Shown here piece by piece: positions 39 through 36,681 of a stretch of 64,000 nt of DNA. The notes beneath the pieces were generated by a model. That model did not search any database. It worked only from the letters and a program-made list of their open reading frames with translations, and was not told where the DNA came from. A program made the position numbers and the translations under genes. The stretch is from positions 1,614 through 65,613 of the forward strand of contig CAZAXL010000006.1 in NCBI GenBank assembly GCA_964489145.1, written 5' to 3'. Position 1 is the stretch's first letter; every line of letters begins with the position of its first letter. This stretch comes from an uncultured Gammaproteobacteria bacterium (GTDB taxonomy: Bacteria; Patescibacteriota; Microgenomatia; UBA8517).

Positions 39-503
39 TTATTTTTTCTTTGTTGAAGCTGTCTTTTTAACCACTTTCTTGACTTTCTCAGGTTTCACTT
101 CTTTTACCTCGACGGAGTCCTTTTTTACGATAGGTGCCGGGGCCAGAATGCTTAAAATTTTGTCAAGCTTGGCATTAACAGCATCAAGCTGAGCCTTGTT
201 TTGATCAAAACTTGGAGCGGGAGACCTAAAATTACCTCTTTCAGGCCTTCCTGAATCCGATCTTCCACCATTCATTTTTTCAAAACACTCACTGCAATAA
301 ACCGGCTTGCCGTTTGTCGGCTTGAAAGGTACCTGGCATTCTTTTCCGCAGTTGCTGCAGACTGTTTGGAACATTTCGCGTCTGCCTCTATCTTCACCAA
401 AAGAAGATCTTCCTCTTCCTGAAAATCCACCGCGTCCTCCGCCTCGGCCAAAGCCGCCACGGTATCCGCCGGATCTGTCATCATCTCTATTAAAATTTCC
501 CAT
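39..503 (-). CDS. RG/RGG-rich protein with CxxC-x16-CxxC zinc ribbon (zf-trcl-like) and lysine-rich tail; putative nucleic-acid-binding
   Basis: GGYRGGFGRGGGRGGFSGRGR repeats; CSNCGKEC...YCSECF zinc ribbon; KKVVKKTASTKKK tail. Confidence 0.5.
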   Translation of the reverse strand: MGNFNRDDDRSGGYRGGFGRGGGRGGFSGRGRSSFGEDRGRREMFQTVCSNCGKECQVPFKPTNGKPVYCSECFEKMNGGRSDSGRPERGNFRSPAPSFDQNKAQLDAVNAKLDKILSILAPAPIVKKDSVEVKEVKPEKVKKVVKKTASTKKK

Positions 504-552
504 AGTGTTTATTATATCACAGGTTGTGTTTTATTGTTGGGGCACTTTGTGG

Positions 553-948
553 CTATTTTTCCACTTCAAACCAGTCAATTGGAGATTGGTCTTCCGGTTC
601 GCCATTATAGTTGACAGTGATTTCTTCATCTTTTTTGATGGGTCTAATGGCGCGGTAAACCATACATTGGGTTTTAAAGTTTTGCTTCCAATCGGCATTG
701 GGAGAGTAGGAATGGTTATAGATTGATCCGTAACCAAAAGCCAGAGCGGCTCCGCGGGTACTTCGCCAGGGATAAATGTAATGGCTGAGCGGGGTTTTTT
801 CCAGATTTTTGCGGTCGGTTGGTGTGAAAACCAAAACCGGCGCACTTTCAACTATTTCTCCGTCTTTGATATCTCTGGCCGCAAAAACCCCAAGACCTTT
901 TTTGGAGGTTCTTTTTAGATAAACGTTTTTATTCATAGCTTTGATCAT
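553..948 (-). CDS. SET-domain protein (putative protein-lysine methyltransferase)
   Basis: GLGVFAARDIKDGEIV, YNHSYSPNADW (NHSxxPN) and C-terminal EEITVNYN motifs typical of SET domains. Confidence 0.75.
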   Translation of the reverse strand: MIKAMNKNVYLKRTSKKGLGVFAARDIKDGEIVESAPVLVFTPTDRKNLEKTPLSHYIYPWRSTRGAALAFGYGSIYNHSYSPNADWKQNFKTQCMVYRAIRPIKKDEEITVNYNGEPEDQSPIDWFEVEK

Positions 949-998
949 CCCTTCGATGTGTCTCGGGGTGCTCCTGAATACTGTTATAATACATCACT

Positions 999-1026
999 AT
1001 GAAAACTTGGCAAAGAATCAAAAACG
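999..1026 (+). repeat. 28-bp perfect direct-repeat copy of the epmA 5' end (atgaaaacttggcaaagaatcaaaaacg), preceded by a TATAAT; encodes a 16-aa remnant (MKTWQRIKNGKGLSFF*)
   Basis: Identical to 2452..2479; lies in the SET/AAA intergenic gap. Confidence 0.9.
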
Positions 1027-1035
1027 GTAAGGGGC

Positions 1036-2391
1036 TTAGCTTTTTTTGATCCAAGCTAAGTAATTATTCAAGGAAGGTGCATTAGTTACACTAGCTTCAT
1101 CTGAGATCAATTTTGAAGCCCAACTTCTTTCTGTCCTCTCGCAAAGATTTTTAATATCCCTTCCCGACAAACCCTCCGCTTCTTGAGCCAGCATTACCAG
1201 CCCCTCCTCGCTTAAATGGGTGGCATAATTTCCGAAAATAACCTGTCTTTCTTTTGTGTCTGGAAGCGGAAATTCAATATTTGTATCAAATCTGCTTAGA
1301 AGTGCCGGGTCCAAATCTTTTTTTCGGTTGGTAGCACCAATTAAAATTGTTTTTTCATTGGGATTAAAGCCGTCAATATTTCTTAATAAAACCGATAAGA
1401 CTCTTCTTGTTTCCTCATGGATATCTCCGTCTCTTGTAGTTGCTAAAGAATCAATTTCATCCAAAAAAAGCAAGGCGTTTCCCAGGCTCTTGCATTCATT
1501 GAAAATTGTTGCCAAATTATTTTCACTTTCTCCGTACCATTTAGACATAATACTTTCTATAGGTACATAAATTAAAGGCGCATCAACTTGCCCTGCAATT
1601 ATTCTTGCCATTGTCGTTTTTCCGGTTCCCGGCGGGCCTTCAAATAGAACTGCTTTTGGCCTATTAGATTCATAAATCCTTCTGGTTTTTTTGGCAATTT
1701 GTTCATAGATTTCCGGGTGCTTAAGAGTAAGAACTACGGTTTCTTTAACCTGCTCTTTTATGCTTTCATATCCTGCTAGGTAGTCCCAGTCGGGAGCATC
1801 CTCCGGATTAAAAATTGTTGCCCCCAAAGATTCGAGAACTTTTTTGGGATCGGATTTCTTTTCGGAAAAAGGATTAGCGAGTTTATAGGCGTTAATAAGT
1901 GCTTCTATCTCCTGTACCTCCAAATCGTTATCTTTCGAAAATTCTATTGACCCGGGAAGATAGGATTTGGGCATTCTTAACCAGATTTTTAAGCCATTCT
2001 TTTTATATAAGTGAATATGGTCAGAAAAGGTTGCATAGGATGACAGTTCCAAGTCTCCCACGGTTTTTGTTATCTCGATAAGAAGAGGGAACATGTCCAC
2101 CTTACCGGCTACATCGAACTTGATATTGGAAGAGTTCTTTTCTCTTGAAAAAGAAACCAGGGGCAAATCATTATTTCCTGTTTCTTCGCCGTACTTAAGC
2201 CTAGCAGTTTCGATAATGTCTTTTGTTTGATGATAGGTAAAAGGCTTTTCCGTCAGTTTTTCTACCGGTTCTGTTGACGGCTCTGGGAGAATTACCTCAT
2301 CGGCGCAAGCTGGGGGATTGGCGGCAGGCTTGTCACCTTGGAATTTTTCCTTTAACCTTTCCAACATATTATATAGAATTATATCATACAA
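1036..2391 (-). CDS. AAA+ ATPase (classic AAA family: Walker A/B plus SRH) with ~230-aa N-terminal domain of unknown function
   Basis: GPPGTGKTTMARIIAG, LLFLDEIDSL, ATNRKKDLDPALLSRFD; ORF starts at TTG 2391, first in-frame ATG at 2367. Confidence 0.8.
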   Translation of the reverse strand: MYDIILYNMLERLKEKFQGDKPAANPPACADEVILPEPSTEPVEKLTEKPFTYHQTKDIIETARLKYGEETGNNDLPLVSFSREKNSSNIKFDVAGKVDMFPLLIEITKTVGDLELSSYATFSDHIHLYKKNGLKIWLRMPKSYLPGSIEFSKDNDLEVQEIEALINAYKLANPFSEKKSDPKKVLESLGATIFNPEDAPDWDYLAGYESIKEQVKETVVLTLKHPEIYEQIAKKTRRIYESNRPKAVLFEGPPGTGKTTMARIIAGQVDAPLIYVPIESIMSKWYGESENNLATIFNECKSLGNALLFLDEIDSLATTRDGDIHEETRRVLSVLLRNIDGFNPNEKTILIGATNRKKDLDPALLSRFDTNIEFPLPDTKERQVIFGNYATHLSEEGLVMLAQEAEGLSGRDIKNLCERTERSWASKLISDEASVTNAPSLNNYLAWIKKS

Positions 2392-2451
2392 TATCAGTAC
2401 TGCCTACCATATCGTTTGTTTTTCTCCGGTTAATCAATATAATGATTAGAT

Positions 2452-3411
2452 ATGAAAACTTGGCAAAGAATCAAAAACGACCCAAACCTGATGGAGAAAT
2501 ATCTTGTTCGGGAAAGGGTTGTTGATACAATCCGTTCCTTTTTCAAAAATCAGGGTTTCCATGAGGTTTTTACGCCAATTTTGGTGCCCATCCCCTCGAT
2601 TGAACCCAACCTTGAAGTGTTTGAGTCAGAATTAAGAACTTCGAAAGGGGAAAAACGCAGAGCCTTTTTAATAATGAGCCCGGAGTTTTCTATTAAAAAA
2701 CTTTTGGCAGGAGGAATCGGAAATTGTTTTGAAATTACAAGATGTTTTAGAAATGAGGAAGAAACAAGCCGTCTCCATAATCCCGAATTTACCATGCTTG
2801 AATGGTATAGGATTAATGCCGGCTATAAGGATATTATGAAAGATTTTGAACACTTATTTTTGAAAATTATCGGTAAAGATAAATTGGAATATCAAGGTGA
2901 AGTTTACGATCTTTCTCTTCCCTGGCCGAAAATTAGGATTTCTGACGCCTTTAAAAAATATGCGGGAAAAGATGTTTTAAAAGTACAGGATGCGGACTTT
3001 TATAAAATCTATTTTAATGAAATAGAACCGGAACTTTTGAAAATGAAAAAGCCGTATTTTATTTACGATTATCCGATTTCTCAAGCATCTTTGTCTAAAC
3101 CCGCTAAAGATCCTAGATTTTCTGAAAGATTTGAGGTTTTTCTTGGCGGGGTTGAATTTGGAAATTGTTTTTCCGAACTGACTGATGCCAAGGAACAGAA
3201 AAAGAGATTTGAGACAGAGAAAAAAGACAGAGAAAGAATGAACAAGACAGAGTACCCGATAGACGAAGATTTAATTGAGGCTTTAAAGGAAGGCATCCCC
3301 GCCGTTTCCGGCATCGCCGTGGGTGTAGATAGGCTCGTCATGCTCGCTGCCGACGCTTCTTCAATTGAGGAAACACTGTTCTTTCCGGGAAAAGAGCTAT
3401 TTGACCTTTAG
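2452..3411 (+). CDS. epmA: EF-P--(R)-beta-lysine ligase (lysyl-tRNA synthetase class II paralog)
   Basis: RCFRNEE, HNPEFTMLEWY, GGVEFGNCFSELTD, GVDRLVMLAA motifs; immediately upstream of efp; TATAAT 10 nt upstream of ATG. Confidence 0.8.
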   Translation: MKTWQRIKNDPNLMEKYLVRERVVDTIRSFFKNQGFHEVFTPILVPIPSIEPNLEVFESELRTSKGEKRRAFLIMSPEFSIKKLLAGGIGNCFEITRCFRNEEETSRLHNPEFTMLEWYRINAGYKDIMKDFEHLFLKIIGKDKLEYQGEVYDLSLPWPKIRISDAFKKYAGKDVLKVQDADFYKIYFNEIEPELLKMKKPYFIYDYPISQASLSKPAKDPRFSERFEVFLGGVEFGNCFSELTDAKEQKKRFETEKKDRERMNKTEYPIDEDLIEALKEGIPAVSGIAVGVDRLVMLAADASSIEETLFFPGKELFDL

Positions 3412-3440: not shown

Positions 3441-4007
3441 ATGAACACAATTAACGCGGGCAACATTACAAAAGGGAGCTTTATTATTTTTAAAGGAGTG
3501 CCTGTTTTTATAACCAAGGCTGAGTTTATGTCTCCCGGAAAAGGCTCTCCCGTTATGAGAATCAAATTCAAAAATGTCCAAACAGGAGCCGCGGGGGAGT
3601 TTACCTATAAAACCGGAGAAAGCGTCGAGGTTGCAGAAATCGAGAAAAAAGAAATGGAATATCTATACCGGGATGGGGAAGAGTTGGTTTTTATGAATCC
3701 GAAATCATATGATCAGGTTAGTATCCCGATGGGTCTTATTGACGACCAGTTTGGCTATTTAACCCCAAATCTTAAATGTTGGATTGTTTGGTATAAAGGT
3801 AGCCCCATTGGCGCAACGCTCCCTTCCCATGTAACTTTAAAAGTGACGGAATCTCCTGATGAGGTTGTCGGGAATAGAATCAATGCTCCCAAAAAGACGG
3901 TGAAACTTGAAACAGGAATCGAAGCTCAAGTTCCATTGTTTATTAAAGTCGGAGAAAAAGTGCAGCTCGATACCACAACCGGAGAATATTTGGGAAGGGT
4001 TAAATAA
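3441..4007 (+). CDS. efp: Elongation factor P
   Basis: AEFMSPGKGSPVMRIKFKNVQTG aligns with the EF-P loop carrying the modified Lys (PGKG). Confidence 0.9.
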   Translation: MNTINAGNITKGSFIIFKGVPVFITKAEFMSPGKGSPVMRIKFKNVQTGAAGEFTYKTGESVEVAEIEKKEMEYLYRDGEELVFMNPKSYDQVSIPMGLIDDQFGYLTPNLKCWIVWYKGSPIGATLPSHVTLKVTESPDEVVGNRINAPKKTVKLETGIEAQVPLFIKVGEKVQLDTTTGEYLGRVK

Positions 4008-5520: not shown

Positions 5521-6378
5521 TTAACACCTTACGTCTCCACCGCAATGTTGACAGTTGCTTATAAGCTGCCCAAAAGGCCTTGTATTTGCCCTTCCGCATT
5601 TGGGACAAGTAAAGCTAAGGGAACCATATTTATCCTCAAGTCCGGTTAAGTTCAAAGTTAAGGAACTGCTTTCAAGAGACGAAACGGATAGGGATCCGCT
5701 ACAACTGACAGAAGATTTACCGACAAGTCCTTTCTCCCGCATTTCGTCGGCAATAAACTTGGCATTAACTCCCGAATGAATCAAATCGACAAAATGGTGG
5801 ATCAATTCATGGTTTGGGAGAGGGATATTATTTGCTTTAGTGCCTATTAACTCTAAAAGATTTCCTAAATAAAAATCTCCATCAACTATAAAAAGTTTAT
5901 TTCTTAATACTTCAGGGTCTTTAATTCCGGCAAAAACAGGGTTTAACTTTGTTGCAACTTCCAAGGTGTGATCTTTGGCTGTGTCAAAAAGCACGGTCAC
6001 ATTAAAAGTGGTTTTTTCTCCCAAAGTGGTTTCTTCTATTTGGTACATGGTGATTTTGTTGCATGGGTAGACAGAGTCGTATGACGGACTGATCCAGAGG
6101 GCTGTGCCCGACGGATTTTCCGATACCCAGGACGTTAATGTGTTAAGAAGTTCCGCATCTTTTTGGCCAAGGTAGGAAGATGTGTTGATTTTAATCTCCG
6201 TGTCGGTTTGAAAATCGAGCAGTATTCCATTTTTATATCTGAATTTATATTCATCAGGTTTTCTATGGGTTTCGTTAAATGTACTTATTAGTTCTTCTCT
6301 TAAACGGTCCGGTTTGGTGTATCTCCAAGAGGGGATAAACTTTTCGATTGTTTTTGTTGGAGACTCTATATGTGACAT
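5521..6378 (-). CDS. Hypothetical protein with HExxH motif and C-terminal CxxC...CxxC zinc ribbon
   Basis: NHELIHHFVDLIH; CPKCGRANTRPFGQLISNCQHCGG. Confidence 0.4.
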   Translation of the reverse strand: MSHIESPTKTIEKFIPSWRYTKPDRLREELISTFNETHRKPDEYKFRYKNGILLDFQTDTEIKINTSSYLGQKDAELLNTLTSWVSENPSGTALWISPSYDSVYPCNKITMYQIEETTLGEKTTFNVTVLFDTAKDHTLEVATKLNPVFAGIKDPEVLRNKLFIVDGDFYLGNLLELIGTKANNIPLPNHELIHHFVDLIHSGVNAKFIADEMREKGLVGKSSVSCSGSLSVSSLESSSLTLNLTGLEDKYGSLSFTCPKCGRANTRPFGQLISNCQHCGGDVRC

Positions 6379-34645: not shown

Positions 34646-34720
34646 TGGTGGAGCCGGATAGAGTCGAACTATCCTCCGTACTTTATAAGAGTACTGTCCT
34701 AACCGATGAACGACGGCTCC
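34646..34720 (-). tRNA. tRNA-Ile, anticodon UAU (gene TAT), CCA encoded
   Basis: Cloverleaf GGAGCCG/CGGCTCC acceptor, D-arm GTTC-ATCGGTTA-GGAC, anticodon stem GTACT/AGTAC with loop CTTATAA, T-arm GATAG-TTCGACT-CTATC, A73 then CCA. Confidence 0.7.
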
Positions 34721-36182: not shown

Positions 36183-36200
36183 TTTCTTTTACAAATTTAG

Positions 36201-36274
36201 TGGCTGAGGAGAGACTCGGACTCTCGACCTCGGCGTTATGAATGCCGCGCTCTTACCGACTGAGCTACCCAGCC
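36201..36274 (-). tRNA. tRNA-Met (anticodon CAU), elongator-like (G1-C72 pair); CCA not encoded
   Basis: GGCTGGG-TA-GCTC..GAGC-CGGCA-TTCATAA-CGCCG-..-GAGAG-TCCGAGT-CTCTC-CTCAGCC-A; A31.C39 mismatch; T-loop has C at position 55. Confidence 0.65.
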
Positions 36275-36450: not shown

Positions 36451-36520
36451 TGCGGGGTAGTGTACGGCTGCACGTGAGGCTCATAATCTCACAGGCTGGG
36501 TTCAACTCCCAGCCCCGCAA
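36451..36520 (+). tRNA. tRNA with CAU anticodon and initiator-like acceptor stem (GCGGGG/CCCCGC, A73); Met/fMet candidate
   Basis: Acceptor (T)GCGGGG..CCCCGCA-A as in bacterial tRNA-fMet, but T1-A72 would pair and the anticodon stem lacks three G-C pairs; short D-loop; normal T-loop TTCAACT. Confidence 0.55.
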
Positions 36521-36681
36521 CAAGAGTCAGAATGTAAATTTCAGTTAAATAAAGGCTTTGATCCGGAGGGATGGAACCGGTGAGCTGAGGTCTAAATCAC
36601 CTACAGAGGCGAAACTGTAAAAAGACTGCAACGAGTGTCGGAAACGGAGCTCGTCAAGAATAAGGTTTCCTTATCTTAACG

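Follow-up and report, generated by a model that had tools for sequence, protein, structure and literature searches.

Recurrent pairing of a SET-domain gene with an RGG/zinc-ribbon gene in Microgenomates, and the recent insertion of an AAA ATPase gene beside the pair

At the left end of a 64,000-nucleotide stretch of DNA from an uncultured, very small groundwater bacterium of Candidatus Woesebacteria (GenBank assembly GCA_964489145.1, contig CAZAXL010000006.1, positions 1,614 to 65,613 of the forward strand; here termed the window), three open reading frames (ORFs) follow one another on the minus strand. They encode an RGG-rich zinc-ribbon protein (ZF), a SET-domain protein (SET-A) and an AAA+ ATPase (AAA), with gaps of 49 nt between ZF and SET and 87 nt between SET and AAA. 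The initial annotation described three minus-strand genes, spaced by 50 and 88 bp, that might constitute a single cassette. The gene number and strand are correct and the spacings are those given above; the region is a two-gene association, SET then ZF, accompanied by an unrelated accessory gene, AAA, and there is no three-gene cassette. The reading of the two-gene association that we prefer, at a probability of roughly 0.35-0.45, is that SET-A (and the paralogous SET-B, where present) would methylate lysines of ZF and so modulate its binding to nucleic acid, a proposal drawn from gene neighbourhood and precedent.

Each of the three proteins is a member of an annotated family, and because each has many conserved homologues the three ORFs are considered genuine genes rather than chance reading frames. 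A JGI metagenome contig carries exactly the same proteins. The closest genome is that of Candidatus Woesebacteria UBA8517 (locus L002), in which SET-A is 99% and EF-P 98% identical; the SET identity places the organism in the Microgenomates group of Patescibacteria. The coordinates of all features are collected in Table 1.

Table 1. Features at the left end of the window, in order of position.
Feature	Position	Strand	Details
ZF gene	39..503	-	154 aa; MGNFNRDD and RGG-rich region (1-41), CxxC-x17-CxxC zinc ribbon (42-77), RG/S linker, helix QNKAQLDAVNAKLDKIL, lysine-rich tail
Extended -10 element of ZF	511..519	-	TGATATAAT; ends 7 nt before the ZF ATG; no Shine-Dalgarno sequence; read from sequence
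SET-A gene	553..948	-	131-aa ORF; 127 aa from probable start at 936; no pre- or post-SET domains
Promoter-like site for SET	986..1013	-	TTGCCA-16-TATTAT; consensus match only; -35 hexamer inside the duplicated 29-nt repeat
Direct repeat, copy 1	998..1026		TATGAAAACTTGGCAAAGAATCAAAAACG; orphan copy of EpmA start region, SET side of insertion
Inserted DNA	1027..2450	-	AAA the only gene; G+C content 0.39, compared with 0.41 in the window
AAA gene	1036..2367	-	443 aa; ORF to TTG 2391 (1036..2391, 451 aa); Walker A GPPGTGKT, Walker B LFLDEID, pore loop KWYGES
AAA N-terminal alpha/beta domain	1873..2235	-	residues 45-165 of the 443-aa protein; family-specific; model predicted local distance difference test (pLDDT) score 89
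Direct repeat, copy 2	2451..2479		holds functional EpmA start codon (2452)
EpmA (EF-P lysine aminoacylase) gene	2452..3411	+	TIGR00462, 305 bits (cut-off 287)
EF-P gene	3441..4007	+	TIGR00038, 196 bits (cut-off 186)

SET and ZF genes are recurrent neighbours

The genomic context of the two genes was assessed in two samples, one anchored on SET-A (49 species-level genomes carrying this gene) and one anchored on ZF (80 metagenome loci, 52 of which had at least 700 bp of upstream sequence). ZF was located within 4 kb downstream of SET-A, on the same strand, in 23 of the 49 species genomes, and was directly adjacent in approximately 10. It was the most frequent neighbour family of SET-A, with 21 loci, compared with 15 for EpmA, 13 for EF-P and 10 each for an RpoD-like sigma factor and DnaG. 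From the opposite direction, a SET gene was found upstream of ZF in 10/52 eligible ZF-anchored loci, which again made it the top neighbour family. Where SET and ZF are separated the intervening genes vary; these included a beta-CASP RNase and, in locus L138, a dCMP deaminase, together with genes which, by their N-terminal sequences and not by profile, we take to encode CTP synthase and a pyrophosphatase, and UMP kinase.

The linkage of SET to ZF outlasted that of SET to EpmA as the identity of the SET protein decreased. Where SET identity was 70% or greater, ZF was nearby in 12/14 loci and EpmA in 9/14; at 60-69% identity these values were 8/28 and 5/28, and below 60% identity they were 2/7 and 0/7 respectively.

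A second family, here called SET-B, is paralogous to SET-A and comprises proteins of ∼190 aa which match PF00856 (E 1e-17 to 5e-21) and carry NHSCxPNC and a post-SET CxCGxxxC motif (CxPCxHxCxCGxxxC). SET-B was found directly upstream of ZF, with neither SET-A nor EpmA, at three loci (L071, L083 and L100), and clusters containing SET-A, SET-B and ZF occurred at five others (L011, L044, L047, L048 and L064). SET-B was additionally seen at L073 and is not encoded in the window. The two genes thus recur close together on one strand, both in different species and with paralogous SET families, in counts that take no account of phylogeny. The strongest reason to see the link as functional, and as more than inherited, is that two paralogous SET families converge upon one neighbour.

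Examination of relatives, therefore, divides the functional module that had been suggested for the three genes: SET and ZF are mutual top neighbours, with SET-B showing the same association, while AAA was found in none of 129 loci.

The AAA gene is a strain-specific insertion

On comparison with related sequences, the AAA gene is a recent, strain-specific insertion of a single gene into the 50-bp spacer between the divergent EpmA and SET genes, and the target was duplicated over 29 nt. A unit of 1,453 bp, which consists of the insert and one copy of the repeat (Table 1), is bounded by an exact direct repeat of 29 nt, and the repeat itself is made up of the initial 28 nt of EpmA and one further base. 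In the UBA8517 locus, L002, there is a single uninterrupted copy of the repeat and no AAA gene, and the start codons of EpmA and SET are 50 bp apart. EpmA lies directly beside SET in 12 relative loci, including this closest one, all with an uninterrupted site and no AAA gene between the two. Because the site is uninterrupted in relatives that retain the EpmA/SET pair, the insertion is taken to be the derived state and the repeat to be a target duplication.

The duplicated 29 nt span the EpmA start codon and a -35-like hexamer of the SET promoter. Following insertion SET has retained its native upstream region, and EpmA is now preceded by DNA of the insert.

The insert has the composition of the host, and AAA is its sole ORF. 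An insertion sequence, transposon or integrative element was considered and rejected, as the insert was found to contain neither a gene for a transposase or integrase nor inverted repeats at its termini, the 29-nt direct duplication being all that is present. Searches with tblastn found AAA in 0/129 SET- or ZF-anchored loci (49 species-level SET-anchored and 80 ZF-anchored metagenome loci), and only the contig of the window itself has the gene. Four AAA homologues (P0124, P0140, P0142 and P0143), 52-68% identical to the AAA protein of the window by alignment, occur in four genomes in four unrelated neighbourhoods, never beside SET or ZF. As a test for a recurrent mobile element, flanking direct repeats were sought around these four homologues; there were none at three of the loci and only a 12-nt match of chance length at the fourth (L051).

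These data bear on the possibility that AAA, SET and ZF form one functional module in which the ATPase remodels the methylated protein or the methylating enzyme. Such a module is suggested by the shared orientation and short spacing of the genes, in this one genome only, and it is contradicted by the insertion of AAA with its target duplication, by the absence of AAA from the related SET and ZF loci, by homologues that never neighbour either gene and by promoter-like sites belonging to AAA itself; we consider it extremely improbable. The suggestion of a remodelling ATPase acting upon ZF likewise found no support in the 129 loci or in the unrelated contexts of the homologues. Interpretation of the AAA ATPase should, in consequence, be kept apart from that of its neighbours; the gene is accessory and landed here recently.

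SET-A is a predicted minimal lysine methyltransferase

The start of SET-A is probably the second ATG, as in its homologues. The protein matches PF00856 with an E-value of 1.2e-17 and 64.7 bits (cut-off 22.4), covering 105 of the 105 profile positions, and G18-x-G20, N78-H79-S80-x-x-P83-N84 and Y114, the catalytic tyrosine of the C-terminal (E/D)(I/L)x(V/F/Y)xY segment, are invariant among 14 homologues; the canonical GxG and NHSxxPN motifs reported in the initial annotation were therefore confirmed. The cofactor pocket was judged by alignment to solved SET structures. Residues 6-116 align with Set7 of Schizosaccharomyces pombe (5h6z, E 3e-16) and with PBCV-1 vSET (1n3j, E 2e-11), an alignment in which its GxG, NHS and Tyr motifs fall in register with those of the solved enzymes.

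Both vSET and Set7 resemble SET-A in size (119-169 aa) and in the lack of pre- and post-SET domains. A post-SET cysteine cluster, which many but not all SET enzymes possess, was looked for at the C-terminus of SET-A, NYNGEPDDQTPIDWFEV, and there are no cysteines there; vSET likewise has no such cluster. The NYNGEPDDQTPIDWFEV segment is specific to the Patescibacteria family. A further difference is that vSET and Set7 methylate histone H3 (K27, K37) in eukaryotic or viral chromatin, whereas the organism of the window has no histones. We suggest that SET-A is a cytosolic enzyme that methylates protein lysines in an S-adenosylmethionine (SAM)-dependent manner and that it is of the same minimal type as vSET and S. 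pombe Set7, an assignment based on family membership and conserved motifs.

The family is represented by 627 hits. SET-A is 54-99% identical across the 49 species (median ∼66%), a level of conservation comparable to that of EpmA and one that indicates purifying selection. In the PHROGs collection SET had one weak match (E 4e-5), to a family of unknown function.

Alternatively, SET-A may be a secreted effector that methylates host proteins, in the manner of RomA/LegAS4 of Legionella or NUE of Chlamydia. Patescibacteria are commonly regarded as episymbionts. Most of the characterized bacterial SET proteins are effectors (PMC3980110). However, no signal peptide or additional domain is visible in the 127-131-aa SET-A sequence, its strong conservation across the 49 species gives no sign of the rapid divergence that might be expected of an effector, any hosts would be prokaryotes and so without histone tails, and the genes surrounding SET-A are housekeeping genes. 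An effector role for SET-A is accordingly thought very unlikely.

ZF is probably an RNA-binding protein with a promoter of its own

ZF matches PF23477 (zf_Tbcl_2) with an E-value of 2.7e-19 and TIGR04272 (CxxC-x17-CxxC) with an E-value of 9e-20, and exceeds the cut-offs of both TIGR04272 (70.1 bits compared with 36) and PF23477 (69 bits compared with 27). Its cysteines are arranged as C49-x2-C52-x17-C70-x2-C73; residues 1-41 contain 9 arginines and 15 glycines, the last 32 residues contain 12 lysines, and the isoelectric point (pI) is 9.9. The profile matches, the four cysteines and the residue counts all agree with the earlier description of an RG-rich zinc-ribbon protein with a lysine-rich tail. 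Across the family the layout is conserved: MGxFxRDDR is followed by a stretch rich in RGG, then by the zinc ribbon CSNCGKECEVPFRPTNGKPVYCSDCFEK, a linker of RG/S, the helix QNKAQLDAINxKLDKIL and, finally, a tail rich in lysine. The family contains at least 2,945 clusters at 90% identity, from several groups of Patescibacteria.

Binding of zinc to the CxxC-x17-CxxC domain has been demonstrated by inductively coupled plasma mass spectrometry for small proteins of Methanosarcina mazei (PMC12704099). Two of these, A00184 and A01980, have the same zinc-ribbon domain as ZF, to which the Patescibacteria proteins add the RGG-rich N-terminus, the conserved helix and the lysine-rich tail. A sequence search of the PDB with ZF returned only low-complexity noise, and searches of PADLOC and PHROGs with ZF returned no matches.

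Upstream of ZF genes, both with and without a SET gene preceding them, the arrangement TGnTAnAAT-N6-8-ATG is retained; the strict pattern was present at 27/71 loci and there were many more near-matches (L002-L138). A further conserved motif, resembling GYSCCAACAATAA, lies ∼25-40 nt upstream in the ZF upstream regions. Since the extended -10 element, a perfect one, is only 7 nt from the ATG, there is no Shine-Dalgarno sequence, and the arrangement is conserved whatever lies upstream, ZF is very probably transcribed from a promoter of its own into an mRNA without a leader across Microgenomates. Co-transcription of SET and ZF was considered, as the 49-nt gap has no terminator-like site, and was dropped because ZF has its own conserved promoter.

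In addition to SET, a beta-CASP/RMMBL RNase recurs beside ZF at 6 loci, a DEAD-box helicase that bears RGG at 5 and BipA/TypA at 4, and genes for a cold-shock-domain protein (L092 and L140), an RRM protein and EngB were also found beside it. The neighbourhood of RNA-metabolism genes, with the RGG, zinc-finger and basic-tail architecture, argues for a role in RNA binding or as an RNA chaperone rather than as a nucleoid protein, and ZF is on this guilt by association probably an RNA-binding or RNA-chaperone protein. The protein is envisaged as abundant, basic, zinc-binding and nucleic-acid-binding, most likely with RNA as its target, and as the product of a leaderless mRNA that a strong promoter of its own drives. 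In other Patescibacteria ZF is flanked by cold-shock-domain, RRM, EngB, BipA and DEAD-box helicase genes (L092, 199-2917; L140, 4647-5843; L067, L086, L093, L105 and L126). The DEAD-box helicases near ZF themselves carry RGG-rich N-termini.

A different interpretation is that ZF is a DNA-binding, chromatin-like protein of the nucleoid and SET-A its 'histone' methyltransferase, analogous to the pairs MC1-alpha/Go1-SET and Hc1/cpnSET. ZF is basic and has a lysine-rich tail, the linkage of SET to ZF holds under this interpretation also, and DNA-binding proteins are among the known targets of SET enzymes in prokaryotes (PMC3980110). Set against this, the recurrent neighbours of ZF are genes of RNA metabolism (RNase, DEAD-box helicase, cold-shock-domain, RRM and BipA). 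The combination of RGG repeats and a zinc finger, moreover, is typical of RNA-binding proteins. We regard a nucleoid function for ZF as unlikely.

ZF as a candidate substrate of SET-A

The leading hypothesis, which we infer from the co-occurrence of SET and ZF, is that a basic nucleic-acid-binding protein is methylated. For SET-A, and for SET-B in other lineages, ZF would be the likeliest substrate, at conserved lysines in the zinc ribbon or in the lysine-rich tail, and SAM-dependent methylation of these lysines by SET-A (and SET-B where present) would tune the nucleic-acid binding of ZF.

There are precedents in prokaryotes. The DNA-binding protein MC1-alpha is methylated by Go1-SET, and the histone-like protein Hc1 by cpnSET (PMC3980110). 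These enzymes, from M. mazei and Chlamydia pneumoniae respectively, have endogenous substrates that are small, basic and nucleic-acid-binding, which is the mechanism proposed here for SET-A and ZF. ZF differs from MC1-alpha and Hc1 in belonging to another family (RGG, CxxC-x17-CxxC and lysine-rich tail) and in its RNA-associated appearance. For very few SET enzymes of prokaryotes, namely these two, is an endogenous substrate known, and a search of the literature gave no paper that connects SET with CxxC-x17-CxxC proteins in these bacteria.

The main rival explanation is that the proximity of SET and ZF is inherited Microgenomates synteny only and that SET-A acts elsewhere, most plausibly on the translation apparatus (EF-P or ribosomal proteins). 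Components of the translation apparatus are modified by the eukaryotic SET enzymes Rkm1-4 and Efm1. EpmA and EF-P adjoin SET-A in 15 and 13 of the 49 genomes, with start codons sometimes only ∼10-50 bp apart, and conservation of SET-A to the same degree as EpmA would be expected of a housekeeping modifier.

Several observations weigh against a functional link between SET and ZF, and three of these (the promoter of ZF, its wider distribution and the arrangement at L066) also count in favour of inherited synteny. There was no SET gene near most ZF genes (42/52 eligible loci), and the ZF family, with its 2,945 or more clusters, is much wider than that of SET-A. Conversely, 26 of the 49 SET-A loci had no ZF in the sequence fetched. 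At L066 (1093-2421) the genes for LctP, EF-P and EpmA are divergent from ZF with no SET gene between, SET having been either lost or never inserted. Adjacency cannot be equated with an operon, given the conserved promoter that belongs to ZF itself, and as much of the linkage falls within one clade (Woesebacteria/Microgenomates), inherited synteny could explain part of it. Finally, no lysine column separated SET-linked from unlinked ZF proteins, in a small comparison (31 and 10 sequences) that is confounded by phylogeny.

Inherited synteny does not, however, readily account for the faster decay of the EpmA linkage (0/7 compared with 2/7 for ZF below 60% SET identity), for pairs of SET-B and ZF that exist without EpmA or EF-P, or for the same neighbour having been reached by two different SET families; in addition, we know of no SET enzyme that acts on EF-P. 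Synteny as the entire explanation is considered somewhat less probable, and methylation of ZF is preferred.

Should the link between SET and ZF be real, it would provide a testable substrate for a SET family conserved within Microgenomates, a lineage of the candidate phyla radiation, and a first functional handle on the very widespread, uncharacterized CxxC-x17-CxxC/RGG family. It would also suggest that an RNA-binding protein is regulated post-translationally in organisms whose regulatory repertoires are minimal. A more far-reaching proposal, which we advance only tentatively, is that Patescibacteria (Microgenomates) may possess a dedicated lysine-methylation system in which one or two SET enzymes, the minimal SET-A and the post-SET-bearing SET-B, would modify an abundant RNA-binding protein with RGG, zinc-ribbon and lysine-tail segments that is produced from a leaderless mRNA. 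Such a system would be a bacterial counterpart of the post-translational control exerted in eukaryotes on RGG-type RNA-binding proteins or histone tails, and would provide for the regulation of RNA chaperoning or ribosome biogenesis in ultra-small cells.

The AAA protein belongs to a family with its own N-terminal domain

The start of AAA is most likely the ATG at 2367, giving 443 aa, because the JGI gene call agrees and the best promoter-like -10 element lies downstream of the TTG. Residues 248-376 match PF00004 (E 1.9e-37, 129 bits). G244, K250, T251, D303, E304, N347 and R359 are invariant and K276-W277 is conserved, so that all of the features of classic-clade AAA+ proteins are present: Walker A and B, sensor-1, the arginine residues and an aromatic pore loop. 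We predict that it forms hexamers and acts as an unfoldase or remodeller of the classic clade.

Residues 200-422 match the D2 module of Cdc48 at an E-value of 4e-75, and the two Walker motifs, the sensor, the arginines and the pore loop KWYGES are conserved. In contrast to Cdc48/VAT/p97, PAN and FtsH, the AAA protein of the window has a single AAA module, an N-domain with no solved relative and no protease or partner gene nearby. Identity with the CDC48, PAN, FtsH or CdvC equivalogs was rejected on NCBIfam scores far below the respective cut-offs (144 bits compared with 803 for CDC48, and 137 with 500, 127 with 600 and 121 with 650 for the others). The anti-phage ATPase IetA/IteA (PADLOC; NCBIfam NF042959) is similar at the level of the AAA domain only (E 3e-42); identity with IetAS/IteA was rejected at 130 bits against a cut-off of 510, only the AAA module being matched, and no IetS-like protease partner was present in the window or in the four homologue loci (five contexts). 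An origin in a defence system or phage was set aside, PADLOC and PHROGs having given matches for AAA only at the level of the AAA module.

The N-terminal part had been described as a novel domain of ∼230 aa. The novelty stands in so far as no significant solved structural relative was found (best Foldseek E 0.018, template modelling (TM) score at most 0.41). The size was too large: ∼44 disordered residues and a single compact alpha/beta domain of ∼120 aa are followed by the AAA module. An exhaustive single-sequence phmmer search located the N-domain in only 5 representative proteins, three of them full-length AAA family members (426-457 aa) and two of 224-230 aa, with no sign of the domain in any other architecture. 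The family, N-domain included, is common to Patescibacteria and DPANN archaea (Woesearchaeota and Nanoarchaeota), with ∼50% identity over ∼88% of the length (P0151, P0159, P0168 and P0186 are among the matches). This sharing suggests transfer of AAA genes across domains among ultra-small organisms.

Other genes in the window

Upstream of the three genes and divergent from them are EpmA, EF-P and a lactate permease gene, and EpmA and EF-P also divergently adjoin SET in relatives. Directly after the lactate permease gene is an ORF of 285 aa (5521-6378, minus strand) which has no Pfam match and carries a C-terminal, zinc-ribbon-like CPKCG...CQHCGG motif. Elsewhere in the window three tRNA genes lie close together, at 34646-34720 (minus strand), 36200-36274 (minus strand) and 36451-36521 (plus strand); one is a tRNA-Ile with the anticodon UAU and two have the anticodon CAU. 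A tRNA-Ile with the anticodon UAU is unusual in bacteria.

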